Counted from the first letter of the stretch, positions 3,201-22,843 are shown. The stretch is DNA of 64,000 bases from Bacteroidota bacterium (GCA_041168605.1 JBEEKN010000004.1:4130-68129), one strand, 5' to 3'. The notes: generated by a model not told the origin, from the letters alone. Numbers and translations: made by a program.

Positions 3201-6200
3201 ACAGCCAACAAGGTGGCATCACTGTAGCGCAAGGCATTAATGCTCCAGCTTACAAAGTGGAGTTTGATGTACAAACAACAGCCGGGGGTGCAGATGGTTT
3301 CTCTTGGAGTTTTGCACCAGATGCAAGTGCAACGGCTACTGCCCCAGCGGCAGAGCAAGGTACTGGTACAAAAGTAAAAATCTCTTTTGATGCCTACGGT
3401 GCCATGCCAAATGGCGCAGGTACTTATTTGTTGTACAACAACACAACAACTTCTTTCAACGCAACCTCTGCAGGTGTATTGGGCTTTAACGCTGCTACAC
3501 CTTGGTTGGGTGCTGCTTCTGCACACGTCATCATCACCATCAACGAACTTGGTCAATTGACCTTGAATGTAGATGGTACCGACTTATTTACCAACGTAGC
3601 GCTTCCTGCATCTTATTTAACAGACAATAAAGCTTCTTGGAAACATGTGATCTCTGCCCGTACGGGTGGCTTGAATATGCTTACTGCTATCGATAACCTT
3701 TCTGTTCAGTACAAAGGTTATGGTGCTGGTAATGCCACAATCGGCAATACAATCGCAGCGACTACAACATATTATGTTTCTGAGATGGGTGCAAATGGTT
3801 GTTTCAGTGCGCTTACGCCATTGGTTGCAACGGTTGTGAACCCGAACCCAATTGTATTGACAAACGGTCTTACACCAACTTATTGCCAAGGCGCTACTTA
3901 TACTGAGACAGCAACGTCATCTGCATCACCAGCATATACCTTTACTTGGACTGCTGCCAACCCGAACTCTGGAATTACAGCGCCTGTAAATGCTGCAGCT
4001 TTAGCTCTAACGCCAGTACCTGGTGTTTACACCATTACAGTTACCGGTACAAACGGTGTTTGTACAGCTGTACAAGATGTTACTTTAACAATCAACCCCA
4101 ACCCAATCATCACAACAGCAACTGCTACCAGCGCTATCTGTACTGGCGACACCGTACAATTAGCTGCTACAAGTATTGTTGCGGTGAATGGTCCGGCAAC
4201 AATGAACACGGGTATTGGTTTAAACACCACTACCACCTATCCTTCGCCTTTTGCAAATTGGTACTGGGGAGCTCGACAGCAATACTTGTTTACAGCTGCT
4301 GAATTAACAGCTTTGAACGTATTGCCAGGTAACATTACTTCAGTCGGATTTGATGTCACTCAACAATCAACTGCTGCTGGCTTTACAGATTACACCATCA
4401 AAATGGCGAACTCTTCTGTCACTGCATTGACAACAACTTTTGAAACAGGCCTCACGCAAGTTTATTACAATGCCAACCTTGTACCTAGTGGTTTGGGTTA
4501 TGCAAACAACACACTTGCTTTCCAAACACCATTTGTTTGGGATGGCACTTCTAATGTAGTGATTGAAATCTGTTTCAACAACGGTTCTTACACGAACAAC
4601 GCTATTGCAACAAATTCAACTACTTTCGCTGGTGCTGGTCACTGGGTATTTGCCGACAACGCTAACAACTGTTCAAACCCAAGTGGTGGTACGCTTTCTA
4701 ACATTCGCATCAATATGCAATTTGGCGCAAGTATTGGCACCAACTACACAAGCTTATTGAACTGGTTGTGGACAAGCGGTTTGAATACTACAGGTACTAC
4801 GGCTTCTTCTATCGAGTTCAACACTGGTTCAGCTCCGATTACAGAGGCTTACACAGTTCAAGCAACCTATCCATTAACGGGTTGTCAGTCTGTTGGTACT
4901 ACCAACTTTGCAACAATCAACCCGCTCCCGGTTGTAGGTGCGGGTCCGAACGTTGTGATCTGCTCTAACAACGCAACTGAGCAGCAAACTTTAGCTGGTA
5001 CAGGCGCTGCTACATACACATGGAACAACGGTGTTACCAATAACGTTCCTTTTGCTGTTGGCGCAACAAGTAACTACATTGTTACTGGTACAGATGTCAA
5101 TGGTTGTGTAAACGTGGATACCATGTTACTCACATACTCTACAATTCCTGTTGCCAATGCAGGTGTTGATCAAGCGATTTGTTTTGGTCAGACAGCTACT
5201 TTAAATGCAAGTGGTTTGGCTCCATTCAACTGGACCATGACTAACTATGCAAACAGTGGTTTGACTGCGGGTGTAAACAATGTTCCGTCATTGGTTGTAA
5301 CGCCTACATCACCTGGTACATATACTTACCAAGTGAACGTTCAAAACACTGTGGGATGTACAAATAACGATGCTGCTACTTTAACAGTATACACGCTTCC
5401 AGTTGTGAACGCTGGTGTTGACCAAACGATTTGTAATGCTTCGCCAGTGATTATCTCTGGTTCTGGAGCGTTGTCTTATGCTTGGAACAACGGTGTAACG
5501 AATGCTACGCCATTCTTCCCTGGATCTACAGCGACTTATACTGTAATCGGTACAGACGCAAACGGATGTCAGAACCAAGACCAAGTCATTGTAAATGTAT
5601 TGCCGCAACCAATCGTATTGGGTGGTTTAGACCAAACAATTTGTGCGGGTACGCCAATCATCTTGAACGCATCTACAACTTCTGCTACACCAACAGCTGT
5701 TACAGGCTTCCAGTGGAGCAACAACGTGCCAAACAACACGCAATACGTACCTACAAACTCTGCAACGCTTACGGTTACAGCTACAGGTGCTAACGGTTGT
5801 ACAAACCAAGACCAAATCTTGGTGACTGTATTGGCATTGCCAACTGTAAATGCTGGTCAAGACATCACGGTTTGTGCTGGCTTGAGTGCAACACTTAACG
5901 CTTCAGGCGCGGTTTCTTATGCTTGGAACAACGGTGTAACACAAGGCATTCCTTTCTATCCGAACGCAACGCAAACTTACACAGTAGTAGGTACAGGTGC
6001 TAACGGTTGTACGAACAACGACCAATTATTGGTAACTGTTTCTACTGGCCCAACAGTCAACTTGTCAGCTCCTCAAACAGTCTGTGCGAACACACCGGCT
6101 TCTATCAGTGCAGCAGTTCAAAATAGCCTTGGTGGTTTCTGGACTACAACCAACGGGACAGGTGTGATTTCACCTAACGTTACCAACGGTACAGTTACTT

Positions 6201-7192
6201 ATACACCAGCTGTTACAGATCCAGTTGTTGTCAACTTGACTTACGTAGCTACCAACGCTTGTGGTTCTGCATCGCAAAACACAACAGTTACTGTATTGCC
6301 AATCCCGGTTGTCAACGCAGGTCCTGACTTCGCAGTATGTCAAGGTACTTCTGCTACACTTACAGCTACCGGTACAGGTTTCTTAACTTGGACTACTCCA
6401 AACGTAACCAACGGTGTTGCTTTTGTTCCTGCAACTACAACAACTTACAATGTAGTCGCTACAGGTTTCAATAACTGTACAAACAACGACCAAGTAACTG
6501 TCACAATTCTTGCTTTACCTGATGTTAACGCTGGCGCTGACCAAACAATCTGTTCTGGTGAGTCAGTTACATTGAATGGTCAAGGAGCTGTTTCATACCA
6601 ATGGAATGGTGGTGCTGCCAACGGTGTAGCTTTTGCACCATCTACAACGGCTACTTATACAGTTACAGGTACAGGTGTGAACGGTTGTGAGAACACAGAC
6701 CAAATGAGTGTAACAGTAAATGCTACGCCAGTGGCAAGCATCTCTGTTGTGAACGACGTAACACTTGCTGCAACGCCAGCAGGCATGAACTACCAATGGA
6801 TCAACTGTGCTTCTGGTACAGATGTGCCTAACGGTTCTACTGCTAACTTTACAGCAATTGAAAATGGTTCTTATGCAGTTATCGTTACTTCTGCTCAAGG
6901 TTGTTCTGATCAGTCTGACTGTGAAGTCATCGATGCAGTAGGTTTAGATCAAATTGCAGCCATCGAGATGTCTGTTAATCCGAACCCAACGGCGGGTGAC
7001 TTAACCATCAATATGCCAACAGAATTGACCGCTCAAGCGCAAGTATTTGATGCTCAAGGTAAATTGGTATTAGATGCCTCAAATGTTTCAAATGGTTCTG
7101 TATTGAATCTCCAAAACATGACAACAGGTGTTTATGTGGTACGTATTACAGCTTCAAATTCTGTACAAACATTCAGAGTGGTTAAACACTAA
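242..7192 (+). CDS. Giant secreted T9SS cargo protein (parallel beta-helix, GEVED, lectin-like domain, Ig-like repeat array, type A C-terminal sorting domain)
   Basis: 2316-aa ORF with signal peptide MKSFTRLILTTFAMLSLALSAAWAQ. PbH1-like repeats are present (NNTVKNCIIIGS, IDNNEIRRC, VLRNNIHDI, IANNMINNV, IINNTIVVN). A GEVED-type domain ends YGEREDYMLNV at about 2741..2770. Nine modules of about 75 aa follow (PVVNAG-DQTIC...Y-WNNGVT...GTD-NGC). The C-terminus NPNPTAGDLTINMP...GVYVVRITASNSVQTFRVVKH matches the T9SS type A sorting domain. Confidence 0.9.
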   Translation: MKSFTRLILTTFAMLSLALSAAWAQVSVTATGGTASGSYATISAAFAAINAGTHTGSIQITVTANITEPAAVTPLEASGVGLASYTAISLKPSGNVTVSSDATPTTNRGLVELKAADNVTIDGDDPLTAGVRNLTFQMATSTNITAVIRISSNSTTGTAGADNNTVKNCIIIGSRPTGIATTMSYGINVSNYSTTSLTTGGYSCLNTTIDNNEIRRCYRGIHHNGVSATYPNTGIYVTNNIIGSATLADNVGNCGIFVSYSNITGGTTLSLIEGNDVRCGDVSPTGAGFSSTVSGIDLGTVNSGIRVLRNNIHDIMQPTTFGYGANGINISGAAQCENFLIANNMINNVVAMKYTTGATSSFIANGIRFSAGATFARIINNTIVVNAAQTGATVNYAQHGIYLVSTMTAAQILNNIVINNGVGTGSYAIYSATNANITAATVNNNNYSAPSGVVGFYGGAAQPTLAAWQAATGKDANSFNITPGFVSANDLHLTTAPTPLESAGASVAVTLVTNDIDNQLRPGPVASVNGGGTNPDIGADEMDATQIFAPTLSFTSITGTDCNAAIAHTVVADAAPVSGTFSSLVVNYSFDGVAQTPITMTNTTGNTYTATIPAATTPFNANVTWSIVATNSFGLVTQYTGTAYTDYLLFGITASAVATPATICAGQSTVLSATFNTALATYDSPSVGAPTADEDLGNVTISQAGNILLNNTTTINSLTGTLGTAVGTAGSFSNFTDLATVNMAAGQTYDFSISSLTTGPTNYTNSLAIFIDWNRNGLFTDAGEMVYTPPATISGPHTRTGSFTVPAWAFGKMRMRVVCLETLITGYGTTSSYGEREDYMLNVIGAATWYQGTTVIATTPTVGQTPATTTDYYATVGAQGCQTTSAPVTVTVNQLPIAPIAAPSSQCGVGVPTASVASGAGAAGSGSFYWYDAATAGNIVQMPPVASTWSTFYTTDFNTGTSPGATESGTATTTAIPGWLQLTGAVNSQQGGITVAQGINAPAYKVEFDVQTTAGGADGFSWSFAPDASATATAPAAEQGTGTKVKISFDAYGAMPNGAGTYLLYNNTTTSFNATSAGVLGFNAATPWLGAASAHVIITINELGQLTLNVDGTDLFTNVALPASYLTDNKASWKHVISARTGGLNMLTAIDNLSVQYKGYGAGNATIGNTIAATTTYYVSEMGANGCFSALTPLVATVVNPNPIVLTNGLTPTYCQGATYTETATSSASPAYTFTWTAANPNSGITAPVNAAALALTPVPGVYTITVTGTNGVCTAVQDVTLTINPNPIITTATATSAICTGDTVQLAATSIVAVNGPATMNTGIGLNTTTTYPSPFANWYWGARQQYLFTAAELTALNVLPGNITSVGFDVTQQSTAAGFTDYTIKMANSSVTALTTTFETGLTQVYYNANLVPSGLGYANNTLAFQTPFVWDGTSNVVIEICFNNGSYTNNAIATNSTTFAGAGHWVFADNANNCSNPSGGTLSNIRINMQFGASIGTNYTSLLNWLWTSGLNTTGTTASSIEFNTGSAPITEAYTVQATYPLTGCQSVGTTNFATINPLPVVGAGPNVVICSNNATEQQTLAGTGAATYTWNNGVTNNVPFAVGATSNYIVTGTDVNGCVNVDTMLLTYSTIPVANAGVDQAICFGQTATLNASGLAPFNWTMTNYANSGLTAGVNNVPSLVVTPTSPGTYTYQVNVQNTVGCTNNDAATLTVYTLPVVNAGVDQTICNASPVIISGSGALSYAWNNGVTNATPFFPGSTATYTVIGTDANGCQNQDQVIVNVLPQPIVLGGLDQTICAGTPIILNASTTSATPTAVTGFQWSNNVPNNTQYVPTNSATLTVTATGANGCTNQDQILVTVLALPTVNAGQDITVCAGLSATLNASGAVSYAWNNGVTQGIPFYPNATQTYTVVGTGANGCTNNDQLLVTVSTGPTVNLSAPQTVCANTPASISAAVQNSLGGFWTTTNGTGVISPNVTNGTVTYTPAVTDPVVVNLTYVATNACGSASQNTTVTVLPIPVVNAGPDFAVCQGTSATLTATGTGFLTWTTPNVTNGVAFVPATTTTYNVVATGFNNCTNNDQVTVTILALPDVNAGADQTICSGESVTLNGQGAVSYQWNGGAANGVAFAPSTTATYTVTGTGVNGCENTDQMSVTVNATPVASISVVNDVTLAATPAGMNYQWINCASGTDVPNGSTANFTAIENGSYAVIVTSAQGCSDQSDCEVIDAVGLDQIAAIEMSVNPNPTAGDLTINMPTELTAQAQVFDAQGKLVLDASNVSNGSVLNLQNMTTGVYVVRITASNSVQTFRVVKH
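4922..6931 (+). repeat. In-frame array of 9 diverged Ig-like modules of about 70-85 aa (CHU_C-associated type) inside the 2316-aa gene
   Basis: Each module starts P-x-V-N-A-G-x-D-Q-T-I-C and ends G-x-N-G-C-x-N-x-D-Q-x-x-V-T-V. The period is about 210-250 nt. Copies are diverged at DNA level and in frame, so this is protein-domain repetition rather than a CRISPR array or satellite. Confidence 0.8.
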
Positions 7193-7280: not shown

Positions 7281-10200
7281 ATGAGAAAACTATACGTATT
7301 AAGTTTGATTTTCCTGTTTTTTAGCCAAATTGGTTGGTCCCAATTTATTCAGATCGGAACCGGAACAGCTTCTAGCTATTTGAGTGGACCAATTTATAGA
7401 AGTGCGGCCACCTCAACTTTTAATTGGTCTAAGTATGCCTACATCTATACGGCTACAGAATTAGCAGCGATACCCGCAGGCTCCATGATTACCCAAATTG
7501 AGTGGGAAAAGGCTACGGGTACGATCACTGCTCCTAATACTTTTGAAATTTTATTGGCCAATAATTCTGCAACGGTCTTAACTACAGGCACCACTTGGGG
7601 AACAATCAGTGCAGGGGCTACCTCAGTTTATAACAATACCAACCAAGCATTTACAGGTACTGCTCCTGGTTGGGAATCCTATATTTTAACTACGCCTTTT
7701 ATTTATACGGGTGGTACGCTTCAAGTCATGACTGACCACGTGAAAGCGGGTACAGCGAGTGGCGCGGTTAATTACTACCGTACTGCAGCCACAGGGATGG
7801 CTATCGGCTGGGCTGCTGGCGCAGCAGGGTCTGCGGCATCGTCTTTAACAACTACGTATGGTAATAACCGCCCAAATATCAAAATCCATTATGTACCGGG
7901 CAATGCTTGTACTGGCGCTGTAACTGCTGGAACGGCTGTTTCTTCAGTTCCAACTGTATGCCCATCTGTACCTTATTCGGTTTCTTTGAGCGGAAGTACT
8001 TTAGCTTCGGGCATCACTTACCAATGGCAATCAGCAACAAGCGCATCGGGCCCTTTCTCAAATATTACTGGCGCTACAAACAGCAGCTACCAAGCAACTC
8101 AAACCGTTGATACTTGGTATCAGTGTGTAGTAACCTGTACAGCTTCAGGTTCAACCCAAACATCTTCAGTTGTTGGTGTCACTACCAACAACTTCTATAA
8201 TTGTTATTGTACGAGTGGCGCCACTTCTGCAACCTATGGTGATATCCAACGCGTAGAATTGAACACAATTGACAATAGCTCTACAGCATGTAATGGGATG
8301 TATTCGGATTTCACGAGTATCTCTACATTGCTTTCTCCAGGGGTTACTTACCCAATGGAACTCGATTTATTCAATTGTACTGGAGGTACCTACAACTATG
8401 GAACTCGCGTTTGGATAGATACCGACCACAACGGTCAGTTCGATACCTACGAGTTACTTTATGATGCGAGCAATTCTTTGCCGGCTCTTACAACCATAAA
8501 CGTTCCATTTAACATTACTATTCCACCAACAGCACTTTCAGGCATGACGAGAATGCGTGTGGTGATCATCGAATCGAACGCCACACCTCCTGCGTGTGGA
8601 ACCTATACTTGGGGTGAGACAGAAGATTACATGATCAATATCTCAGCACCACCAACTTGTCCGCAACCAACTTTATTGAATGTTGTGAGCACTACCTTGA
8701 ATCAAGCTATTATTGACTGGACGCCAGGTGGCGCAGAAACGCAATGGCAAATTGAATACGGTCCGCAAGGTTTCACACCAGGAACAGGTACATTGGTTTA
8801 TACGTCAGCGCACCCATTCACAATTGGATCTTTAACACCTTATAGCTTCTATCAAGCACGCGTGCGCGCAGTATGTACACCTGGCGACTCTTCGTTTTGG
8901 TCACCGGCAATATCTTGGAACACCTATGATCAAGGTCAGTACATTACCTGGGACAACGAATGCCCAGCAACTGGCTTCATTGATATTTCAGCTAACCCTA
9001 CAGCTACCTACACCAACATTGCTTATTTAGGTGAAATCGGTCTGACTTTGCCGTTCCCAATTTTGTACCAAGGTACGTTGGTTACGGTTGCTACAATTGG
9101 TAACACAGGTGGTGTCAAGTTCGGCACGACAAACGCACAACTCAATTACGTAATGGAGCCAGGTAACGGTTTGTATCCATATATTCAGCAATTGGCGCAG
9201 TCTTATGCAGTGGGTGGAGGTATTTACTACGAGCAAATTGGCACTTCGCCGAATAGCCAGTTAGTAATTCAATGGAAAGACATTCCTCACTGGAACTCTC
9301 CTATTTTCCCTAACGGCGCAACTTTTGAATTGATCATCGACGAAGCGACCCAAGAGATTTACTACGTATACGATGACGTCATCATGGGCAACCCAACAGC
9401 TTGGGACTTCGGTGCCGATGCCGAGATTGGCGTTCGCGGTGCACAGAACATCAACGTTTCAATGAACAACCAAACGTATTTGCAAAACAACAGCTGTGTG
9501 CATTTCTACTACGTAGACTGCCCGAACCCTGTTGCTTTAACTACTTCTTATTTGTTCCCTAATGAGGCAGCCTTTACCTGGACAGCCAGTGCAGCAGGTG
9601 AAACATCTTGGACTGTAGTTTACGGCCCTGCAGGTTTTGACCCACTTACTAGCGGCACAACGCTAACTGTAACTGCAGCTTCTGTTCAACTTTTGAACCT
9701 CATTCCACTTGCCAACTACGACATGTACATCTACTCTGCTTGTGCGGGTGGTTTGCAAAGTGCTGGTTTGTTCTACAACTTCCAAACCCCACCAATTTGT
9801 TCTAACCCAACGGCCTTTACAAGCACTGCAGGTTTAGACAGCCTCATGAGCAGCTGGAGCTGGAGCCCATACACGAGCTTCTATCCTTCTACAGGCTTCA
9901 ACTTACAAGTAGTAGCACAAGATTCTGCTTTGTACACAGGCACTGTTTATGCTTTAGACAACAACAACAACGATACCACCACTAACGCGGCATGGTATCC
10001 AGGCCAAGCGGTTCAGGTATATGTTCAGGCAGTATGTGGCCAGGATACATCAGCCTATGTAGGTCCAATTAGCATTATCATGCCAATCAGCAATGACAAC
10101 GCATGTGGCGCTCACCCGATTACTGTTGGCGCCCCAGGTTTGTTGTACAACAACACCGGCGCTACAGTTTCAGCTGAAGAACTCGGTATTGTTCCGCCAG

Positions 10201-11270
10201 TAACCGGCGCACAAACCACAACTGGTTGGGCCAACAACAACCTCAACCACACCACTTGGTTCAAGTTCACTGCGCCAGCATCAGGCAATGTGCGCGTAGA
10301 CGCAACGGGTGTTGAATACAACGGTCAAATTGGTGTGTACTACGGTGCAGACTGTAGCATCTTGCCAAGCTTCACATTAGAAGGCGCCAATGACAACGAA
10401 ATCGACGGCACTTCTGAAGCACCAAACTTTACAGTATGTGGCCTTACGCCAGGTGCAGAGTACTACATCATGCACGACGGTTCAGGAACTGCAGGCAATT
10501 ACACCATTGCGATCAGCGAAGTAAGCGTTTACGCAGGCGTAGAGGGTGAAGTACTCGAGATCTGCTACGGCGAGAGCACCAACTTGTTCTTAGGTATTGC
10601 CAACTACACGCTAGGCGGCGAATGGATTGCTACCTCACCAGCGGTTGTACTCCAAAGCAATACCTTCAACTCTACAGACTACGCTTCACAAACTTACACA
10701 TTCAACTATGTTGTCAGCGATGGTTGTGCGGTAGACCAAGCCACTTCTACTGTTGTTGTTTACGCAGCGCCAAGCGCAGGCCAAGATGGCAGCATTACCG
10801 TATGTTTGAATGAGCCATTTGTATTATGGAATGGCCTATCTGGCAACATCGATGCCAACGGAACTTGGTACAACGCAAGCAACAACGCACTTACAGCAGC
10901 TCAAGATACCTCAGGTAACTTGGCAGGACAGTTCAACTACGACTATATCGTCACGAGCCCAGTTTGCCCAAGCGACACTTCAAATGTATTGGTTGTTGTA
11001 GATGGTTCTTGTGACTTTACAGCATCTATCGAAGAAAACCAAATGGGTCTTTCGGTGTATCCTAACCCAACTTCAGGCATCTTGCAAATTTCTAAATCAC
11101 AAATTGGTTCAGCAAGTGTAGAGGTTCTCGATTTAAATGGCAAAGTGCTTAAAAATAGCGCTATGCAACAGCATTTAACACTCGACCTTAGTGCTTACCC
11201 GCGCGGTATGTATATGGTCAAAGTTCAAATGAATGGCGTGAGCATCATCGAAAGAATCGCAGTTCAATAA
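7281..11270 (+). CDS. T9SS cargo protein, tandem paralog 1 (head domain, YQWQS Cys module, GEVED, Fn3-like x3, NIDO-like module, PPC-like domain, Ig-like x2, type A CTD)
   Basis: 1329-aa ORF with signal peptide MRKLYVLSLIFLFFSQIGWSQ. GEVED ends WGETEDYMINI. Fn3-like segment: PPTCPQPT...ETQWQIEYGPQGFTPGTGT. C-terminus YPNPTSGILQISK...GMYMVKVQMNGVSIIERIAVQ matches the T9SS type A sorting domain. It is colinear with the three following genes. Confidence 0.9.
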   Translation: MRKLYVLSLIFLFFSQIGWSQFIQIGTGTASSYLSGPIYRSAATSTFNWSKYAYIYTATELAAIPAGSMITQIEWEKATGTITAPNTFEILLANNSATVLTTGTTWGTISAGATSVYNNTNQAFTGTAPGWESYILTTPFIYTGGTLQVMTDHVKAGTASGAVNYYRTAATGMAIGWAAGAAGSAASSLTTTYGNNRPNIKIHYVPGNACTGAVTAGTAVSSVPTVCPSVPYSVSLSGSTLASGITYQWQSATSASGPFSNITGATNSSYQATQTVDTWYQCVVTCTASGSTQTSSVVGVTTNNFYNCYCTSGATSATYGDIQRVELNTIDNSSTACNGMYSDFTSISTLLSPGVTYPMELDLFNCTGGTYNYGTRVWIDTDHNGQFDTYELLYDASNSLPALTTINVPFNITIPPTALSGMTRMRVVIIESNATPPACGTYTWGETEDYMINISAPPTCPQPTLLNVVSTTLNQAIIDWTPGGAETQWQIEYGPQGFTPGTGTLVYTSAHPFTIGSLTPYSFYQARVRAVCTPGDSSFWSPAISWNTYDQGQYITWDNECPATGFIDISANPTATYTNIAYLGEIGLTLPFPILYQGTLVTVATIGNTGGVKFGTTNAQLNYVMEPGNGLYPYIQQLAQSYAVGGGIYYEQIGTSPNSQLVIQWKDIPHWNSPIFPNGATFELIIDEATQEIYYVYDDVIMGNPTAWDFGADAEIGVRGAQNINVSMNNQTYLQNNSCVHFYYVDCPNPVALTTSYLFPNEAAFTWTASAAGETSWTVVYGPAGFDPLTSGTTLTVTAASVQLLNLIPLANYDMYIYSACAGGLQSAGLFYNFQTPPICSNPTAFTSTAGLDSLMSSWSWSPYTSFYPSTGFNLQVVAQDSALYTGTVYALDNNNNDTTTNAAWYPGQAVQVYVQAVCGQDTSAYVGPISIIMPISNDNACGAHPITVGAPGLLYNNTGATVSAEELGIVPPVTGAQTTTGWANNNLNHTTWFKFTAPASGNVRVDATGVEYNGQIGVYYGADCSILPSFTLEGANDNEIDGTSEAPNFTVCGLTPGAEYYIMHDGSGTAGNYTIAISEVSVYAGVEGEVLEICYGESTNLFLGIANYTLGGEWIATSPAVVLQSNTFNSTDYASQTYTFNYVVSDGCAVDQATSTVVVYAAPSAGQDGSITVCLNEPFVLWNGLSGNIDANGTWYNASNNALTAAQDTSGNLAGQFNYDYIVTSPVCPSDTSNVLVVVDGSCDFTASIEENQMGLSVYPNPTSGILQISKSQIGSASVEVLDLNGKVLKNSAMQQHLTLDLSAYPRGMYMVKVQMNGVSIIERIAVQ
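9313..10821 (+). repeat. Copy 1 of a 1509-bp perfect direct repeat (offset 3999 nt) inside paralog 1
   Basis: A line-by-line comparison with 13312..14820 found no mismatch. The encoded 503 aa and the frame-shifted shadow ORFs (10112..10321 = 14111..14320; 10622..10813 = 14621..14812) are identical. Mismatches begin at 9312/13311 and 10822/14821. Confidence 0.9.
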
Positions 11271-11288
11271 TTTCAAATACATTAAGAA

Positions 11289-14200
11289 ATGAAAGCAAAT
11301 ATGAAAAGTCTATTTAGTGTTTTTGCCTTATTGCTCAGCTCTTTTTTGGGTGCGCAAATAACGCTCAACACCACTCATACCAACAACAATGGTGCGAGCT
11401 CAATTATCTTTAATGTGCAAAACACCAATGCTAATGATATCATCATAACGGGTGTGAATTGCCACTTAGGAACAAGTACGGCCAACAACCTACAGTTATT
11501 GTATAGAACAACGCCATTAATTGACAATACTACACCTTGGGACCACGGTATTGTGGGTGCGGGGCAGAATGGCTGGATCTCAGTTGCTACCGGTACGGCG
11601 AACTCCAATACGACCAATGGTATTGTACCTGCACTGACGAACTTGAATTTAATTGTACCAGCAGGGGCAACCTATCAGTTGGCCTTTTCGGGCACCACAA
11701 TTCAGTACATGACACTTACTAATGGTGCTGGCTTGAATACTTTCTCTGCGGGTGGTGTAAATATCATTACTGGTGACGGCATCAGTTGGGCTGGTGGCGC
11801 TTACCCAGCCACGCCTGTCAATTATCCGCGTGGTTTGGTTGGTGGCATCACCTTTATTTCCGGAACAGCTTGTACAGGAACGCCAAATGCAGGTGTAACC
11901 GCAACAGCAACAAACCCCGTTTGCCCCTCTGTGCCTTTTAGCCTTACAATGGCCAGCGCAACATTTACTTCGGGTCTGACATACCAATGGCAGTCTGCAC
12001 CTTCGGCAACTGGCCCATGGACAAATATTGCTGGTGCGAATACCCCAGGTTATGCAGCTTCACAACTCGTAGATACCTGGTACCAATGTATTGTAACTTG
12101 CTCAGCAACCTCAAGTTCTTCAACTTCTACGCCTCTTTTGGTTACCACAAATAGTTTTGTGAATTGTTATTGTGCCTCCAATGCAACGAGCGCAGCCGAT
12201 GAAGAAATCTTAAATGTTACCTTGAGTACACTCAACAATTCCTCGATTTGTGGCGTTGCGGCACCTGGAGCGGGTTCGGTGGTAAGTCAATATTCGAATT
12301 TCACAACTTCGGTTGCCGCACCTATTTTAGCGCCGGGTGTTTTTTATCCTTTTTCTGTAGAGATCGGCACTTGTAATGGCAACTACAATAACTGGACAAA
12401 AGCTTGGATTGACTTCAATCAAAATGGTTTGTTTACAGACGCTGGAGAAGAGATTTATTCGTCCACCATCGCCACAAACGGACCACATATTGAATCCGGA
12501 ATTATTTCTGTTCCTACAACAGCTGCACAAGGCATCACTCGCATGCGTGTGGTGAATGTCGAAACAACTGTTACTACCGGTGTTAACCCATGCGGAACCT
12601 ATACTTGGGGTGAAACTGAAGATTATTTTGTTCAAATTGCTTCACCACCAACATGCCCGCAGCCAACTGCTCCAACCTTAGTGAGCACCAGCTTAAATGA
12701 TGCTACTATTGACTGGGTTCCAGGCGGATCTGAAACACAATGGCAAATTCAGTATGGCCCGCAAGGTTTTGCGCTTGGCACCGGAACAACTATTAACGTA
12801 ACAACACATCCTTACACCATCAGCGCATTAACACCATATAGCTTCTACCAAGCTTATGTGCGTGCTATTTGTACACCAGGTGACTCTTCTTACTGGACAC
12901 CATCTGTTTCTTGGAATACTTATGATCAAGGTCAGTACATCGCCTATGACAACGAATGCCCAGCAACAGGCTTCATTGATATCTCAACGAACCCTGCAGC
13001 AACCAATACGAACATTGCTTATTTGGGTGAAACCGGTATTACGCTTCCTTTCCCGCTTTTGTATCAAGGCACTTTGTTTACCAATGCAACAATCGGCGCT
13101 ACTGGTGGTGTTAAATTAGGTACCACTACGGCAGCACTCAATTACGTCATGGACGCAGGCAATGGTTTGTATCCATTTATTCAGCAGCTTTACACATCAT
13201 ATCCAGTCGGAAGCGGCGGTGTATATTACCAACAAGTGGGTACTTCACCAAACAGTAAGTTTGTGATCCAATGGAAGAATCTGCCACACTGGAATTCACC
13301 AATTATTCCCGACGGCGCAACTTTTGAATTGATCATCGACGAAGCGACCCAAGAGATTTACTACGTATACGATGACGTCATCATGGGCAACCCAACAGCT
13401 TGGGACTTCGGTGCCGATGCCGAGATTGGCGTTCGCGGTGCACAGAACATCAACGTTTCAATGAACAACCAAACGTATTTGCAAAACAACAGCTGTGTGC
13501 ATTTCTACTACGTAGACTGCCCGAACCCTGTTGCTTTAACTACTTCTTATTTGTTCCCTAATGAGGCAGCCTTTACCTGGACAGCCAGTGCAGCAGGTGA
13601 AACATCTTGGACTGTAGTTTACGGCCCTGCAGGTTTTGACCCACTTACTAGCGGCACAACGCTAACTGTAACTGCAGCTTCTGTTCAACTTTTGAACCTC
13701 ATTCCACTTGCCAACTACGACATGTACATCTACTCTGCTTGTGCGGGTGGTTTGCAAAGTGCTGGTTTGTTCTACAACTTCCAAACCCCACCAATTTGTT
13801 CTAACCCAACGGCCTTTACAAGCACTGCAGGTTTAGACAGCCTCATGAGCAGCTGGAGCTGGAGCCCATACACGAGCTTCTATCCTTCTACAGGCTTCAA
13901 CTTACAAGTAGTAGCACAAGATTCTGCTTTGTACACAGGCACTGTTTATGCTTTAGACAACAACAACAACGATACCACCACTAACGCGGCATGGTATCCA
14001 GGCCAAGCGGTTCAGGTATATGTTCAGGCAGTATGTGGCCAGGATACATCAGCCTATGTAGGTCCAATTAGCATTATCATGCCAATCAGCAATGACAACG
14101 CATGTGGCGCTCACCCGATTACTGTTGGCGCCCCAGGTTTGTTGTACAACAACACCGGCGCTACAGTTTCAGCTGAAGAACTCGGTATTGTTCCGCCAGT

Positions 14201-15278
14201 AACCGGCGCACAAACCACAACTGGTTGGGCCAACAACAACCTCAACCACACCACTTGGTTCAAGTTCACTGCGCCAGCATCAGGCAATGTGCGCGTAGAC
14301 GCAACGGGTGTTGAATACAACGGTCAAATTGGTGTGTACTACGGTGCAGACTGTAGCATCTTGCCAAGCTTCACATTAGAAGGCGCCAATGACAACGAAA
14401 TCGACGGCACTTCTGAAGCACCAAACTTTACAGTATGTGGCCTTACGCCAGGTGCAGAGTACTACATCATGCACGACGGTTCAGGAACTGCAGGCAATTA
14501 CACCATTGCGATCAGCGAAGTAAGCGTTTACGCAGGCGTAGAGGGTGAAGTACTCGAGATCTGCTACGGCGAGAGCACCAACTTGTTCTTAGGTATTGCC
14601 AACTACACGCTAGGCGGCGAATGGATTGCTACCTCACCAGCGGTTGTACTCCAAAGCAATACCTTCAACTCTACAGACTACGCTTCACAAACTTACACAT
14701 TCAACTATGTTGTCAGCGATGGTTGTGCGGTAGACCAAGCCACTTCTACTGTTGTTGTTTACGCAGCGCCAAGCGCAGGCCAAGATGGCAGCATTACCGT
14801 ATGTTTGAATGAGCCATTTGATTTGCTCACCGGAATAGGTGGCAACGTAGATTTAGGCGGTACTTGGTATAACCCGAGCAACCAAACATTGCCAGGAAGC
14901 TTAGATACTTCTGGTTCTTTGGCGGGTCAGTACAATTACGATTACATTGTCACGAGCACAATTTGCCCGAACGATTCTGCAAACGTTATAGTGATTGTAG
15001 ATGGTTCTTGCGACTACACTGCTTCAATTAATGAACTTGCAGCTCAGTGGGAAATCTATCCAAATCCTGCCTCAGCGGCTTTAACAATTACCAATCATAA
15101 GGGTCTTGCAATTTCTAATCTAGAGATTTTAGACATCAATGGCAAGGTAATTTTAAGCGGAAAACCAACGCAGCAACTTCAAAATGAAATCGATCTTACA
15201 GCGCTTCAAACGGGTATGTATATCGTCAGAATTAAATGCGAAGATCAAATGCTCAGTAAGCGTTTTATTAAACAATAA
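11289..15278 (+). CDS. T9SS cargo protein, tandem paralog 2 (different head domain, same downstream architecture as paralog 1)
   Basis: 1329-aa ORF only 18 nt after paralog 1. Signal peptide MKSLFSVFALLLSSFLGAQ (an alternative ATG lies at 11301). GEVED ends WGETEDYFVQI. Type A CTD: YPNPASAALTITN...GMYIVRIKCEDQMLSKRFIKQ. Confidence 0.9.
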   Translation: MKANMKSLFSVFALLLSSFLGAQITLNTTHTNNNGASSIIFNVQNTNANDIIITGVNCHLGTSTANNLQLLYRTTPLIDNTTPWDHGIVGAGQNGWISVATGTANSNTTNGIVPALTNLNLIVPAGATYQLAFSGTTIQYMTLTNGAGLNTFSAGGVNIITGDGISWAGGAYPATPVNYPRGLVGGITFISGTACTGTPNAGVTATATNPVCPSVPFSLTMASATFTSGLTYQWQSAPSATGPWTNIAGANTPGYAASQLVDTWYQCIVTCSATSSSSTSTPLLVTTNSFVNCYCASNATSAADEEILNVTLSTLNNSSICGVAAPGAGSVVSQYSNFTTSVAAPILAPGVFYPFSVEIGTCNGNYNNWTKAWIDFNQNGLFTDAGEEIYSSTIATNGPHIESGIISVPTTAAQGITRMRVVNVETTVTTGVNPCGTYTWGETEDYFVQIASPPTCPQPTAPTLVSTSLNDATIDWVPGGSETQWQIQYGPQGFALGTGTTINVTTHPYTISALTPYSFYQAYVRAICTPGDSSYWTPSVSWNTYDQGQYIAYDNECPATGFIDISTNPAATNTNIAYLGETGITLPFPLLYQGTLFTNATIGATGGVKLGTTTAALNYVMDAGNGLYPFIQQLYTSYPVGSGGVYYQQVGTSPNSKFVIQWKNLPHWNSPIIPDGATFELIIDEATQEIYYVYDDVIMGNPTAWDFGADAEIGVRGAQNINVSMNNQTYLQNNSCVHFYYVDCPNPVALTTSYLFPNEAAFTWTASAAGETSWTVVYGPAGFDPLTSGTTLTVTAASVQLLNLIPLANYDMYIYSACAGGLQSAGLFYNFQTPPICSNPTAFTSTAGLDSLMSSWSWSPYTSFYPSTGFNLQVVAQDSALYTGTVYALDNNNNDTTTNAAWYPGQAVQVYVQAVCGQDTSAYVGPISIIMPISNDNACGAHPITVGAPGLLYNNTGATVSAEELGIVPPVTGAQTTTGWANNNLNHTTWFKFTAPASGNVRVDATGVEYNGQIGVYYGADCSILPSFTLEGANDNEIDGTSEAPNFTVCGLTPGAEYYIMHDGSGTAGNYTIAISEVSVYAGVEGEVLEICYGESTNLFLGIANYTLGGEWIATSPAVVLQSNTFNSTDYASQTYTFNYVVSDGCAVDQATSTVVVYAAPSAGQDGSITVCLNEPFDLLTGIGGNVDLGGTWYNPSNQTLPGSLDTSGSLAGQYNYDYIVTSTICPNDSANVIVIVDGSCDYTASINELAAQWEIYPNPASAALTITNHKGLAISNLEILDINGKVILSGKPTQQLQNEIDLTALQTGMYIVRIKCEDQMLSKRFIKQ
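13312..14820 (+). repeat. Copy 2 of the 1509-bp perfect direct repeat inside paralog 2
   Basis: Identical to 9313..10821. Flanking sequence on both sides drops to roughly 65-70% nucleotide identity by eye. Confidence 0.9.
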
Positions 15279-15305
15279 ATCATTTGTAAATATTACATTG
15301 TTCAT

Positions 15306-15332
15306 AAAGGGAGGCACTGCCTCCCTTTTTTT
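15306..15332 (+). terminator. Rho-independent terminator after paralog 2
   Basis: aaagggaggc-act-gcctccctttttttt: a hairpin plus T-tract 28 nt after the stop codon. Confidence 0.75.
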
Positions 15333-15348
15333 GTTCAATAAAAAATCT

Positions 15349-15356
15349 TATATTTG
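15349..15356 (+). promoter_or_regulatory. -7 promoter box TAnnTTTG (tatatttg) for the second bicistronic paralog unit
   Basis: Exact match 28 nt upstream of the ATG at 15385, just after a terminator. Confidence 0.5.
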
Positions 15357-15384
15357 AGATATTTAAAACTATAATTTCTTAATT

Positions 15385-18300
15385 ATGATGAGAAAACTTT
15401 ACCTCAAACTGTTCTTTCTCGTATTTTCAGCTCTTGGCACTAGCGCTTTTGCGCAGTACTGCACGCCAACATTTGTTAGCGGCTGTTCTTTCGGTGACCA
15501 AATCCTGAATTTCAATACTACGGGAGGCGCTAGCAACATTACCAACAACGGCTCTGGCTGTAGTGCTGGTTATTACCAGTATTTCACAGGCCAGACGGTA
15601 TCGCAATTGCAAGGCCAAGATGTCACACTCAATATGCAAGCGGGCCCAACTTGGGGTCAGGGCTTCAAAGTCTGGATTGACTGGAACAACAACCAATCTT
15701 TTGCCGATGCAGGAGAATTGGTCTATACCTCTCCAGGATCTGGTGTTGCTGTAAACAGTGCGGTAGTTACCGTTCCTTTTTCTGCAACTACAGGTACAGT
15801 GCGCATGCGCGTAGTTTGTAGCTATGCAGGAATCCCTCTTGCGATGGATGGCTGCCCAACGAATCAATCTTACGGCGAATGCGAAGACTACGACTTTGTA
15901 GTATTGGCTTCTGCTGCATGTTCTGGAACCCCAACTGCAGGTACGGCTGTAACTTCATCAGCAACCATTTGCCCGAGTGTCGACTACACGCTTTCTTTGT
16001 CTGGTGCTACACTTGCAGCTGGTCTTTCTTACCAATGGCAGTCTGCGCCAAGCGCAACAGGCCCATGGACAAACATTACTGCGGGTACAACTCCGAACTT
16101 CATCACCTCTCAAACGGTTGACACCTGGTACCAATGCATCGTAACTTGTTCTGGTCAGAGCGCAACATCTTCTGTTGTTGGTGTAACGACAAATTCATTT
16201 TTGGCTTGTTACTGTACAAGTACAGCAACTTCAACGTTTGACGAAGAAATCCTCAACGTTACGCTAAACACCCTCAACAACACTTCAACTTGTGGCGTAG
16301 CTGCGCCAGGCCCTGGGTCTACTGCAAGCCTGTATTCAAACTACACTACTTTAACACCAACCATTCTTTCTCCAGGAGTAGTTTATCCTTTGTCTGTTGA
16401 AATTGGAACTTGTAACGGCAGTTATACCAACTGTACTAAAGTTTGGATTGACTTCAATCAAAACGGTTTGTTTACAGATGCAGGAGAAAATGTATATACT
16501 TCAGCTGCAACTTCTGTAGGTCCTCATTTTGAATTAGGAAACATTACAATTCCATCTGGTGCTATTTCTGGCAACACGCTCATGCGGGTTGTAAACGTAG
16601 AAACTTGGGATCCAGCAAACATCAACCCTTGTGGTACTTATACTTGGGGCGAGACCGAAGACTACCTAGTCAATATCTCTGCGCCGCCAACATGTCCACA
16701 GCCTACGAACTTCTCTTTGATCCAAGCAAACAACATAATTGCACAAGTAGAGTGGATTGCAGGTGGTACAGAAACACAATGGCAAATTGAATACGGCCCA
16801 CAAGGCTTTACGCCAGGATCAGGAACATCAGTCATTGTGACGACCAACCCTTACACCATTACTGGTCTTACAGCAAATTCATTCTATCAAGCATATATCC
16901 AAGGTATTTGTACACCTGGTGACACCTCTTATTTTACGCCGCCAGTTGCTTGGAATACTTACAACCAAGGTCAGTTTGTCGACTGGGACAACGCTTGTCC
17001 AACAAACGGTTTTGAAGACATTGCCGGTTTTGCAACCAATGCCAATTTAACTGATGATTCAGAGGCAGGCGTTACACTTCCATTTACATTCTTATATCAA
17101 GGTATACTCATGAATACCATGACAATCGGTAACAACGGCGGCGTAATTCTTGGTTCAACAACAGCTCAAGTAAACTATAACATGCCTGCCTCTGGAAATG
17201 GTTTATTTCCTTTCATTCAAGATTTAGGTACAGCAACTTCACCAAATGGCGTTTATTATGGTCAAGTAGGAAATTCACCAAATGCCAAATTCATTGTTCA
17301 ATGGAACAACGTACCTCACTATGGTTTCCCGACGCCAACAAATGGAGCGAGCTTCCAATTGGTAATTGAAGAGGCTACAAATGAAATCTATTATGTTTAC
17401 GACGATGTAGAAATGGGCAACACAGCTTGGGACAACGGTGCCGACGCAGAAATTGGTTTGCGTGGCCCGAATAACGTGAATGTCTCTTTGAACAACACTG
17501 CTTATTTACAAGATAACAGTTGTGTTCACTTCTACTACACCAACTGTCCGAAGCCAACAACCTTTGCAACTAGCTATGTTGCGCCAGACGAAGCCATGAT
17601 TACCTGGACAGCAGGCGCTGCGGCAGAAACCAACTGGACCATCATCTACGGCCCAACAGGTTTCAACCCAGCAACAGGCGGTACAACGACTACATCTACT
17701 GCTAACAGTGCTATTTTAACTGGACTTGCGCAACTTACAACTTACGATGTATACATCTATGCAGATTGCGCAGTTGGTCTTCAAAGTTTAGGTTTAGAAG
17801 GTAGCTTTACGACGCCTCCTTTCTGTTCAAACCCAACGAACTTATTTGCAAGCACTGAAGTAGATAGCCTTATTTCTTCTTGGTCTTGGACTGGTTACTC
17901 TGCGCTTTATCCATCAACAAGCTTCAACCTTCAACTTGTACAACCTGGTGGAGCTTTGTACAGTGGCGCTATTTACAACCTAGATAACAACACAACAGAC
18001 ACCACTTATGATGCAGAATTCATGGCAGGTCAGACTTTCGATGTCTATGTTCAGGCAGTTTGTGGCCAGGACACCTCTTTCTACGTAGGTCCGTTCAATG
18101 TGGTTTTCCCACTTACAAACGATACCCTTTGTGGAGCACAAATGATTCCTGTAAATGGTCAGATGTATATGTTTAATAACACAGGAGCAACATTTGATGT
18201 AGCAGAACTAGCGATGGTTCCACCTGCAACTGGTGCGCAGACCACAACAGGTTGGGCTAACCAAAACTTAGAAATGACCACATGGTTTAAGTTTATTGCA

Positions 18301-19305
18301 CCACCTTCAGGGGCAGTTCGCATCAATTGTACTGGCGTTGCCTACAATGGTCAGATGGCGGTATATGGTTCGCCAAACTGTAGCAACATTGCCGGTTTCC
18401 AAATGATGGCGGCCAACGACGACGACTTAGGTGGAATGAACCAAGCACCAAACTTCACAGTTTGTGGCATGACACCAGGTACTGAATACTACATGATGCA
18501 CGACGCCTTTAACTTTACTGCGGGCAACCATGCCATTCAACTATACGAAATCGTCTTGAATGCCGGCGTAGAAGGGGAGCAACTCGAAGTATGTTACGGC
18601 GACACCGTTAACTTATTCTTAGGTATTGCAAACTACCAATTGGAAGGTACTTGGTCAGAAACCACACCAACACTTGGTTTGAATGACAACTTATTCAACA
18701 CCAATGGTTTGGCTTCAACGCTTTACGAATTCACATATACCGTTCAAGATGGTTGTGCCTCTGATGCAGCCAATGCTTATGTACAAATCTATTCTGCACC
18801 TAACCCGGGTGTAGGTGGAACCATCAACGTATGTTTGAACGAACCATTCAACTTGGTTTCTGGTATCAGCGGCTTAGTTGATCTAGACGGTGTTTGGTAC
18901 AATAACGCTTCTATGGAAACGCTACCAAGCTCAGTAGATACCTCAGGGGCTACAGGCGGAAACGTCACGTATACATATACTGCTAGCAATGGTGTTTGCC
19001 CGGATGAGTCAACTACCGTTACAGTTGTTGTCAACAATGGTTGTGACTTCACAGCTGGCATAGACGAGCTCGCGGCTGGTTTTGAATTATATCCAAACCC
19101 TACAAGATCTTCCGTTGCGATTTCTTGGAGAGCAAATGGAGAAACAACCCTTACACTCACAGATTTGAATGGCAAGGTCTTGTTGAACGCAGTGAGTCAG
19201 GCATCGCAATATGCCATGGATTTATCCAATTTTGCACCAGGTGTTTACATCGTTACGGTTCAAAATGGCGATCAATTACTTACTGAGCGCATCATCAAAC
19301 AATAA
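15385..19305 (+). CDS. T9SS cargo protein, tandem paralog 3 (N-terminal GEVED head, second GEVED, Fn3-like, NIDO-like, PPC-like, type A CTD)
   Basis: 1306-aa ORF with signal peptide MMRKLYLKLFFLVFSALGTSAFAQ. There are two GEVED domains (YGECEDYDFVV and WGETEDYLVNI). CTD: YPNPTRSSVAISW...GVYIVTVQNGDQLLTERIIKQ. It is about 60-70% identical to paralogs 1 and 2 over the shared modules. Confidence 0.9.
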   Translation: MMRKLYLKLFFLVFSALGTSAFAQYCTPTFVSGCSFGDQILNFNTTGGASNITNNGSGCSAGYYQYFTGQTVSQLQGQDVTLNMQAGPTWGQGFKVWIDWNNNQSFADAGELVYTSPGSGVAVNSAVVTVPFSATTGTVRMRVVCSYAGIPLAMDGCPTNQSYGECEDYDFVVLASAACSGTPTAGTAVTSSATICPSVDYTLSLSGATLAAGLSYQWQSAPSATGPWTNITAGTTPNFITSQTVDTWYQCIVTCSGQSATSSVVGVTTNSFLACYCTSTATSTFDEEILNVTLNTLNNTSTCGVAAPGPGSTASLYSNYTTLTPTILSPGVVYPLSVEIGTCNGSYTNCTKVWIDFNQNGLFTDAGENVYTSAATSVGPHFELGNITIPSGAISGNTLMRVVNVETWDPANINPCGTYTWGETEDYLVNISAPPTCPQPTNFSLIQANNIIAQVEWIAGGTETQWQIEYGPQGFTPGSGTSVIVTTNPYTITGLTANSFYQAYIQGICTPGDTSYFTPPVAWNTYNQGQFVDWDNACPTNGFEDIAGFATNANLTDDSEAGVTLPFTFLYQGILMNTMTIGNNGGVILGSTTAQVNYNMPASGNGLFPFIQDLGTATSPNGVYYGQVGNSPNAKFIVQWNNVPHYGFPTPTNGASFQLVIEEATNEIYYVYDDVEMGNTAWDNGADAEIGLRGPNNVNVSLNNTAYLQDNSCVHFYYTNCPKPTTFATSYVAPDEAMITWTAGAAAETNWTIIYGPTGFNPATGGTTTTSTANSAILTGLAQLTTYDVYIYADCAVGLQSLGLEGSFTTPPFCSNPTNLFASTEVDSLISSWSWTGYSALYPSTSFNLQLVQPGGALYSGAIYNLDNNTTDTTYDAEFMAGQTFDVYVQAVCGQDTSFYVGPFNVVFPLTNDTLCGAQMIPVNGQMYMFNNTGATFDVAELAMVPPATGAQTTTGWANQNLEMTTWFKFIAPPSGAVRINCTGVAYNGQMAVYGSPNCSNIAGFQMMAANDDDLGGMNQAPNFTVCGMTPGTEYYMMHDAFNFTAGNHAIQLYEIVLNAGVEGEQLEVCYGDTVNLFLGIANYQLEGTWSETTPTLGLNDNLFNTNGLASTLYEFTYTVQDGCASDAANAYVQIYSAPNPGVGGTINVCLNEPFNLVSGISGLVDLDGVWYNNASMETLPSSVDTSGATGGNVTYTYTASNGVCPDESTTVTVVVNNGCDFTAGIDELAAGFELYPNPTRSSVAISWRANGETTLTLTDLNGKVLLNAVSQASQYAMDLSNFAPGVYIVTVQNGDQLLTERIIKQ

Positions 19306-19328
19306 TATACTGCTTAAAAGCACAACAT

Positions 19329-22796: not shown

Positions 22797-22812
22797 ACAA
22801 CGCTTTAACATG

Positions 22813-22843
22813 AAAAAGGCGCACTATTTAGTGCGCCTTTTTT
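22813..22843 (+). terminator. Rho-independent terminator after paralog 4
   Basis: aaaaaggcgcac-tattta-gtgcgcctttttt: a hairpin plus T-tract 17 nt after the stop codon. Confidence 0.75.

Follow-up and report, generated by a model that had tools for sequence, protein, structure and literature searches.

Recurrent concerted evolution in prokaryotes has been described for 26 genes, among them tuf, mtrA, cycB and fla, and is regarded as rare where it is long-lasting (Wang & Chen 2018, PMC6053082). We describe here two adjacent genes, P1 and P2, in a 64,000-nt stretch of DNA from a Bacteroidota bacterium (GCA_041168605.1, JBEEKN010000004.1:4130-68129; this whole stretch is called the window below). 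Part of each gene very probably undergoes concerted evolution by recurrent interlocus gene conversion, and does so throughout a clade of freshwater Flavobacteriales. As in the genes of Wang & Chen, the paralogs of one genome are closer to each other in the affected part than to their orthologs, the duplication is older than the clade, and conversion is read from conflict between trees and from the preserved neighbourhood of the genes; the copies of mtrA and of fla likewise lie in tandem (PMC6053082). Unlike those genes, P1 and P2 are homogenised over an internal 38% only, with a 3' edge that is fixed and a 5' edge that is movable. They also encode multi-domain proteins predicted to be secreted, whereas the published cases belong to core complexes or pathways, and the "gene balance" rationale offered for the latter is not obviously applicable. 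The time depth differs as well: it extends, as far as it can be traced, to a clade within one family for P1/P2, compared to hundreds of millions of years for the cases in PMC6053082.

A second comparison is with Porphyromonas gingivalis, in which the identical adhesin-domain repeats of rgpA, kgp and hagA, genes for cargo of the type IX secretion system (T9SS), break assemblies (Dashper et al. 2017, PMC5266723). These genes share with P1/P2 the status of Bacteroidota T9SS cargo, the identical stretches of DNA and the breaks in short-read assemblies, and both domain rearrangement and gene conversion have been invoked for them (PMC5266723). They are dispersed, however, and whole adhesin modules are repeated and reordered, whereas P1 and P2 are adjacent and share one collinear tract with edges in mid-domain. 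In P1/P2, in contrast to the rgpA/kgp/hagA comparison, concerted evolution across species is demonstrated.

Surface-protein genes recombine in other ways elsewhere. The cassette systems Neisseria pilE/pilS, Borrelia vlsE and Anaplasma msp2 combine an expression site with silent truncated donors and create diversity. They make use of non-reciprocal recombination of surface-protein sequences, as is proposed for P1/P2, but P1/P2 consists of two complete open reading frames (ORFs) and has uniformity as its outcome, and it is not a member of this group. Cassette-type antigenic variation was rejected on the grounds that both genes are full-length ORFs of 1329 amino acids (aa) that have separate starts and separate sorting domains, and that the shared segment is identical, not variable. 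In the bab and other hop genes of Helicobacter pylori, parts of genes are converted, which yields segments that are identical within a strain and different between strains, as well as chimeric genes. The loci are dispersed, and conversion has been seen experimentally and during infection, in the setting of host adaptation or antigenic variation. Both cases entail part-gene conversion of surface-protein paralogs, with the difference that P1/P2 is a tandem pair, belongs to a free-living freshwater host and is known from sequence alone. Conversion and concerted evolution of segments among babA/babB/babC and hop paralogs have been reviewed (PMC3960876, PMC4552749). A search of the literature on type IX secretion with gene conversion, and on the GEVED domain, found no prior description of the P1/P2 locus.

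P1 (7281..11270, + strand) and P2 (11289..15278, + strand) each encode 1329 aa, and P2 begins 18 nt downstream of P1. Positions 9313..10821 (P1) and 13312..14820 (P2), both on the + strand, are the same over 1509 nt, without a single mismatch, and the offset between them is 3999 throughout. Neither end of the exact run can be lengthened by even one base, and this is the sole exact direct repeat of at least 30 nt within the 64-kb window. The initial annotation, made from the sequence alone, had reported this match, and as assembled sequence it is confirmed, with the first mismatches at 9311/9312 and at 10822. The count of 503 identical residues given there needs correction. The P1 copy takes in codons 678-1181 in part, and the shared protein run is 502 residues (P1 679-1180); at residue 678, P1 has N where P2 has D, and the quoted "PDGATF..." is the P2 version only. 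The segment that separates the two copies (10822..13311, + strand) is unique and holds the C-terminal module of P1 (the rest of its second immunoglobulin-like (Ig-like) domain and the sorting domain), the 18-nt spacer and the N-terminal two-thirds of P2. It is what an unequal crossover would lose or gain.

Outside of the tract, identity at the same offset is ~0.65-0.72 over ~100-300 nt. The 65-70% first estimated for the flanks is roughly correct, except on the right, where identity over the first 100 codons is closer to 60%. In the codon alignment, P1 and P2 are identical (1.00) in the tract and 0.54-0.86 identical in the homologous flanks, and the N-terminal ~200 aa of P2 align poorly with P1 (~40% nucleotide identity). 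Two further paralogs follow on the + strand, P3 (15385..19305) and the shorter P4 (19329..22796). Neither is homogenised, and their identity to P1/P2 in the tract columns is 0.40-0.73. For P3, which served as an internal control, it is 52-72%, so the earlier observation that the third paralog has diverged through the segment holds, and the fourth has diverged likewise. Among the sites that are polymorphic in the four paralogs, P1 and P2 agree at 793 of 793 inside the tract, whereas 58% mismatch outside (log10 P ~ -295). The homogenised part is internal to the gene, with saturated flanks on either side.

Loci of relatives (given L-numbers; W denotes the window) were collected by protein search, exact-protein look-up and two collection scans. 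The data are metagenome assemblies, apparently mostly short-read. The related contigs are labelled as metagenome-assembled genomes (MAGs) of Crocinitomicaceae, Cryomorphaceae or Flavobacteriales, and most sample names are those of lakes, ponds and rivers. P1 orthologs from the protein search have 54-94% aa identity, with P2 orthologs on the same contigs. The gene order A-P1-P2-P3-P4, where A is the giant gene upstream of P1, recurs in the closest relatives examined; more distant ones have A-P1-P2 and a different third gene. Tracts were mapped by exact k-mer extension and are expressed in P1 codons. Self-BLAST at >=95% missed repeats, its alignments running into the diverged flanks.

The P1/P2 pair with the same internal tract was found in ~15 related lineages, in independent assemblies, and in 13 of them the tract is identical or nearly so within the genome. 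The tract of L002 (P1 aa identity to the window of 94%) spans 677-1180 and is exact over 1513 nt; that of L003 (94%) has the same span with one mismatch; and that of L004-L007 (92%) spans 678-1180 and is exact over 1510 nt. Next come L099/L110 (90%; exact part 691-1161), L087 (88%; 688-1180) and three loci at 84%, namely L089 (685-1172), L100 (654-1177) and L084 (~600-1172), the last two with the 5' edge shifted to the left. L096 (82%) has a tract at 679-1180 and L009 (82%) at 726-1172, with a few mismatches in 680-726. The remaining extents are 704-1180 in L093 (80%), 677-1180 in L094 (78%) and 887-1168 in L011 (68%). In L083 (JGI 3300071567, a 2.59-Mb contig, 10001-17983) the tract is ~94% identical through 680-1180 with the same edges, and in L010 it is ~88% identical over codons 880-1180; both genes are intact in each. 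The tracts thus differ in age among the lineages, with divergences of 0%, about 0.1-1%, 6% and 12%. Movement of the boundaries among relatives, which the initial annotation had proposed to look for, is seen at one end: the 5' edge moves (~600 to 887), and the 3' edge is found at codon 1180/1181 or up to ~20 codons before it in every lineage, never past it.

The zero mismatches and the sharp edges in the window, taken by themselves, would suit a single very recent conversion in this genome only. The recurrence of the same block and edges in related genomes, together with strong purifying selection on the tract protein, would suit an old segmental duplication frozen by that selection, without conversion. 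Both are answered by the comparison of divergence within and between genomes. The tract of W has 0.79-0.95 nucleotide identity per 100-nt window to that of L002 or L004, a difference between genomes of ~15%. Synonymous divergence between P1 and P2 is 1.5-2.6 (saturated) in the flanks; in the tract it is 0 in W, L002 and L004, 0.01 in L084 and 0.03 in L009, and it is 0.33-0.82 over codons 680-1180 in L083, L011 and L010. Between genomes, synonymous divergence of the tract is 0.66-0.77 for W against L002, L004 or L083, and 1.0-1.6 (up to saturation) for W against L084 or L009. The between-species values of 0.66-0.77 (W, L002, L004 and L083; codons 680-1180) fall below the 1.03-1.21 of the corresponding part of P3 and below most flank values (0.68-2.6); composition, codon bias or exchange between species may be the cause.

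Neighbour-joining trees were made for eight genomes (W, L002, L004, L009, L010, L011, L083, L084) and for separate partitions, the left flank (codons 240-590), codons 680-885, the core (890-1165) and the right flank (1181-1329). In the flank trees, P1, P2 and P3 form clades that span all genomes, except that L011_P1 (left) and L009_P1 (right) fall outside of their clades. In the core tree, P1 and P2 from one genome always come together (8/8 genomes), and P3 stands apart; the P3 orthologs make up a separate clade in all of the partitions. In the tree for codons 680-885, L010 and L011 still group by paralog, which fits their shorter tract. The P1-P2 duplication predates the divergence of the compared genomes, as seen from the flank clades, the synonymous divergence of the flanks and the conserved A-P1-P2 order. 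The tract is not the product of a whole-gene duplication, as the initial annotation had judged, and independent duplications cannot give this pattern either.

Synonymous identity within genomes, combined with divergence between them, rules out constraint and fits recurrent conversion. A frozen duplication is hardly credible in view of synonymous sites that are identical within genomes and 0.66-1.6 apart between them, of a core tree that joins P1 with P2 of the same genome, and of L083, where synonymous sites were free to diverge while the protein stayed constant. In this L083 pair the synonymous divergence of the tract is 0.33 and the non-synonymous 0.009, a ratio of ~0.03; the synonymous drift with the protein unchanged indicates that selection acts on the protein and not on nucleotide identity. 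The initial annotation had reasoned that the same block with the same boundaries in relatives would indicate an old, constrained duplication. The block does recur in that form, and the inference nevertheless fails, as the tract is ~15% different between genomes. A single conversion confined to this genome is, short of error in all of these assemblies, very unlikely for a related reason: the tract is alike within each of 13 lineages yet diverged between them (synonymous 0.66-1.6), and one recent event per lineage at the same edges is itself recurrent conversion. The differing ends and ages of the tracts, and the nesting of tracts, point to many events. Gene conversion between old paralogs was therefore the right class of explanation, whereas the view of it as a recent event was not, the same tract and 3' edge being present in ~15 independently assembled lineages.

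A repeat in a metagenome assembly raises the question of artefact, with a real genome that has one copy, or two clearly different ones. The window comes from such an assembly, and from position 354 on it is identical, over the 20,917 nt compared, to a 78-kb contig of JGI metagenome 3300045479. An exact-sequence look-up of the P2 protein (11289-15275) gave no record, and yet a 1329-aa gene is called at this place on contig L001, which is probably a quirk of the database. In the apparently short-read assemblies, the two copies differ only within ~175 nt of a tract edge, close to the Illumina read length, and a de Bruijn assembler would collapse rare copy-specific variants in the interior. Strain differences are mirrored in the two copies: 6 of the 7 single-nucleotide polymorphisms (SNPs) in the tract between L002 and L003, and 7/7 among L004, L005 and L006. 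W and L081 (JGI 3300043450) have 3 differences in 21,270 nt, two of which are the same C>G change at 9745 and 13744 (A822G), which is either a very recent conversion or a collapsed copy-specific variant. Mirrored SNPs were considered as proof of ongoing conversion and rejected as decisive, in that a collapsed repeat node mirrors any interior variant. Because all of the mismatches between copies lie near the edges, identity of the interior can be certified only as at least ~99.2%, and it is possibly 100%; the value of 99.2% corresponds to no two differences closer than the largest k-mer. The initial wording of "perfectly identical" stands for the assembled sequence, and for the interior of the tract it has to be read with this bound. 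The contrast with the saturated flanks is untouched by this short-read caveat.

Other assemblies contain gene models in which the pair is disrupted. In a sister sample, L082 (JGI 3300044700, Ga0451733_0000090), a single P1/P2 fusion gene of 1332 aa (10001-13999) lies between A and P3-P4. It consists of P1 residues 1-1180 and the C-terminus of P2, the counterpart of window 7281-10821 fused to 14821-15278. Apart from the loss of the 3999-nt unit, the contig is identical to L081. Chimeric gene models occur in both orientations, with a P1 head and P2 tail in P0006 and P0024, and a P2 head and P1 tail in P0077 and P0081. P0024, P0077 and P0081 come from other lineages than L082. P0077 and P0081 are on short contigs of 6-7 kb, sizes that fit cyclic traversal of the repeat loop. 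The L082 fusion and the chimeras are either real products of unequal crossover or the result of an assembler that skips or cycles the repeat loop. The proposal that recombination shuffles these surface proteins is thus not demonstrated, the public head/tail chimeras being equally explicable by mis-traversal.

These features notwithstanding, an artefactual origin of the two-copy tract is very improbable. An assembler cannot make 30%-diverged copies identical, and collapse presupposes near-identity; the assembled path needs real reads that join 10822-13311 to the tract on both sides. The same two-copy structure is seen in ~13 lineages from independent projects and, judging by contig names, several assemblers. 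Copy-specific differences are kept in L003, L084, L009 and L099, and L011, L010 and L083, with shorter or decayed tracts, assemble unambiguously into the same two genes with the same edges. Contigs of further MAG species break at the tract edges: L012 and L013 end exactly at the 3' edge, L014, L017, L021, L024, L042 and L045 end 90-180 nt inside the 5' edge, and the L013 contig is the equivalent of segment 10822-13311 plus one tract copy. Such breaks are what is expected of a graph assembler that meets a true repeat.

We examined the two edges of the tract. In the 5' edge zone (9250..9312, + strand), the proteins of P1 and P2 are nearly alike and synonymous differences are dense. The 5' edge is at codon 677-704 in W, L002/3, L004, L087, L089, L093, L094, L096 and L099, and elsewhere at ~654 (L100), ~600 (L084), 726 (L009, exact part) and 887 (L011). 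L084 is informative as to direction: its P2 has the P1-type residues D667 and F676 beyond the usual 5' edge, and its P1 retains them, a sequence pattern that would fit P1-to-P2 transfer. For the main tract, the donor and the recipient copy are indistinguishable. At the 3' edge in P1 (10821..10841, + strand), V-L-W-N-G-L-S directly follows C-L-N-E-P-F, and the P2 counterpart at 14820-14840 is D-L-L-x-G-x-G. The same switch is found in 8/8 aligned genomes, with V-L-W-N-G-L-(S/T)-G after C-L-N-E-P-F in P1 orthologs and D-L-L-x-G-x-(G/S)-G in P2 orthologs. The 12 nt adjoining this edge have 7 P1/P2 mismatches. Codon 1180/1181 is crossed by no tract in any lineage examined, and most recent 3' ends are at 1161-1180. 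The longest in-register identical run of P1 and P2 outside of the tract is 20 nt, and the longest of either with P3 is at most 21 nt. Inspection of the alignments by eye for a conserved nucleotide motif at the edges showed only the coding conservation of C-L-N-E-P-F at the 3' edge. Domain boundaries were rejected as the cause of the edges, both of which fall inside domains of the AlphaFold2 model described below.

We propose that P1 and P2 are ancient tandem paralogs, the ~1.5-kb centre of which would be homogenised by recurrent non-reciprocal homologous recombination. The exchange may take place between the copies on one chromosome or between sister chromosomes, presumably with the general RecA-type machinery of recombination and repair. 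In Escherichia coli, homologous recombination requires ~25-30 bp of perfect match and falls steeply with divergence. As identical runs outside of the tract are at most 20 nt, below this need, the tract is probably self-sustaining, being the sole usable substrate for recombination. Conversions would start and end inside it, and for this reason the edges would stay sharp and be inherited. In rare events, the 5' edge would be pushed outward (654, 600) or the newest tract would come out shorter (726, 887). The 3' edge may be fixed by a heterology block (the 7 mismatches in 12 nt), by selection against swaps of the C-terminal module, or by both. Where conversion lapsed, as it may have in L083 and L010, the copies would drift almost only at synonymous sites.

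Several points weigh against this account. With time, a tract that sustains itself by purely passive means would be expected to shrink from either end, and the near-invariant 3' edge demands an added assumption, either selection or a strong heterology block. L083, the sole clearly long contig and the only assembly in the metagenome and genome scans that was recognisable as long-read, has a tract that is 94% and not 100% identical. The perfection of the interior and the mirrored strain SNPs could be due in part to collapsed copy-specific variants. Conversion is read here from assembled sequences, and dependence on RecA is an assumption, with indirect support from the shortness of the identical runs outside of the tract (at most 20 nt) and from the lack of a match to a dedicated recombinase in the ORFs scanned.

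The behavior of the 3' edge also bears on a different explanation, by which the tract is selected as a recombination substrate, or the 3' edge is a hotspot, for reversible fusion, amplification and head/tail swapping, with conversion as a by-product. An invariant 3' edge with a variable 5' edge is what initiation at a fixed site would give. Fused or chimeric models of either orientation, from two lineages or more (P0006, P0024, P0077 and P0081), could be its products, and similar mosaic patches exist in other tandem GEVED/T9SS arrays (L033, L053). All of the chimeras, however, are explicable by an assembler that skips or cycles the loop. In the lapsed lineages (L083, L010), identity does not change gradually with distance from the 3' edge, and neither a recombinase (Pfam, 34 ORFs) nor a motif (by eye at the edges) was found. 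In addition, L083 and L010 lost homogenisation with both genes intact, which argues against strong selection for identity. We regard this explanation as improbable. The related proposition that the tract is a conserved recombination module, with the 3' edge as a selected junction or initiation site and with heads and tails re-paired by unequal crossover, is unlikely too, if slightly less so. If it were true, free-living freshwater Bacteroidota would have in this locus a switch by which the copy number or phase of T9SS surface proteins is varied, and the L082 fusion and the reciprocal chimeras would be real population variants.

Recurrent conversion invites a look at base composition. The guanine-plus-cytosine (GC) content at third codon positions is 0.45-0.50 in the tract. 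The flanks have 0.28-0.44, and P3, which is not converted, has 0.31-0.42 over the corresponding stretch; for the window itself it is 0.49 in the tract and 0.41 in P3 (17400-18900). When only fourfold-degenerate sites of matching amino acids are counted, the GC content of the tract is still higher than that of P3 in 6/6 genomes (sign-test p 0.005 to 0.43). The shift in composition of the tract is real. In outgroup-polarised counts, AT-to-GC changes are about as frequent as GC-to-AT changes in the tract, with no excess over unconverted DNA. Ongoing GC-biased conversion is not supported by these counts, although parsimony is unreliable at such divergence.

P1 and P2 are, by their predicted domains, T9SS cargo with a type-A C-terminal sorting domain, and they are probably multi-domain proteins of a surface or adhesin-like kind. 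P1 has a P1-specific N-terminal region, followed by GEVED, FN3, further beta-sandwich domains and the type-A sorting domain. Its Pfam matches to GEVED, fn3 and Por_Secre_tail are each above the cut-off. GEVED and Por_Secre_tail are matched in all of P1, P2, P3 and P4, and FN3 in P1-P3. The Por_Secre_tail scores are 52.5, 51.7, 46.6 and 50.4 bits for P1, P2, P3 and P4, respectively (cut-off 27). By eye, the N-termini of the paralogs resemble signal peptides. An AlphaFold2 model of P1 residues 534-1329 (mean pLDDT, a per-residue confidence score, of 73) is a chain of beta-sandwich domains, predicted as an unnamed beta domain (~552-697), FN3 (739-835), an FN3-like domain (843-933), a jelly-roll (954-1080), Ig-like 1 (1092-1161), Ig-like 2 (1170-1245) and the sorting domain (1257-1328). 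The best structural matches of the model are FN3/Ig arrays, including the Aureispira grappling-hook protein. In the model the tract would start inside the last hairpin of the domain that precedes the first FN3 and end past the first strands of Ig-like 2. The domain content given in the initial annotation (FN3-like domains, two in number, a PPC-like domain that is a jelly-roll in the model, the first Ig-like module, and a start in mid-domain) agrees with the AlphaFold2 model and with weak Pfam hits.

The C-terminal ends of the two genes, beyond the tract, have different rates of change. Over the final 95 aa (window 14990-15275), identity among P2 orthologs is only 41-69%, and the C-terminal module of P2 has a non-synonymous/synonymous ratio of ~0.24. 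For P1 orthologs (window 10985-11267) the identity is 69-96% (88-96% among the nearest three genomes, 69-77% to L083 and L084), and the ratio for the module is ~0.04. The T9SS sorting domain of P2 thus appears from these comparisons to be fast-evolving, unlike that of the adjacent P1. The closest matches of P2 tails remain other P2 tails. Within the N-terminal part of P2, L004 14299-14353 has ~15 differences in 55 nt from L006. Elsewhere these two strains hardly differ, and the cluster resembles a small patch of imported or hypervariable sequence.

P1 is preceded by gene A (242-7192), which encodes a giant GEVED/T9SS protein. Its complete orthologs (L002-L011) vary from 2316 to 3020 aa, and the protein is rich in internal Ig-like repeats, each ~70-75 aa long (families D7, D11 and D13); the size range together with the repeats suggests change in repeat number. 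Downstream of P4 are a CHU_C-type giant protein (23031-28406), PorP/SprF (28429-29349, 192 bits) and then an OmpA-family gene. A protein with a PorZ N-terminal propeller (41118-43511) is, with PorP/SprF, a T9SS component of the window. The other genes include, besides this PorZ-like protein, housekeeping genes such as those for tRNA synthetases of the Ile type and the Asn/Asp/Lys type and for peptidyl-tRNA hydrolase. A second tandem array of T9SS cargo (48369-53063) is made of a small GEVED protein (48369-49499) and three Kelch-repeat paralogs with Por_Secre_tail domains (49484-50641, 50638-51846 and 51843-53063). No exact repeat of at least 30 nt is shared within this array.

A Pfam scan of 34 ORFs from 242 to 63844 gave no match to a reverse transcriptase, recombinase, integrase or transposase. 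A diversity-generating retroelement was rejected on this basis (no reverse transcriptase among the 34 ORFs) and on that of copies with zero mismatches, and a recombinase or transposon mechanism was rejected as the required genes were not found in the same scan.

Patches of a similar kind were seen in other tandem GEVED/T9SS arrays of the family. In a tandem GEVED/T9SS pair of a Fluviicola MAG (L053), an 1811-nt exact repeat (12731-14541 and 17419-19229) ends just short of the stop codon. The genes at 13717-18618 and 18931-23286 of Fluviicola chungangensis MAH-3 (L033), an isolate, are 85-97% identical over 175 codons at the C-terminal end. L023 and L056 have mosaic patches of 90-100% identity in such arrays.

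The process at P1/P2 is a known one, with no new mechanism and no new class of element. What the case adds is a tract within a gene that is well resolved, keeps one of its edges and can be followed, at various stages, through many lineages of uncultured freshwater bacteria. It has a practical side, in that the repeat breaks or misroutes short-read assemblies and produces truncated contigs, and may account for the fused or chimeric gene models and the mirrored SNPs. MAG gene catalogues and SNP-based strain analyses of the abundant freshwater Flavobacteriales will hold artefacts at this locus. For the lineages themselves, ~15 of them with a shared 3' edge, with varied 5' edges and ages and with two that escaped, the locus amounts to a natural experiment on conversion tracts. 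This set could serve to measure the rate of conversion against that of mutation, to find the limits that divergence sets on the spread of a tract, and to test for GC bias.

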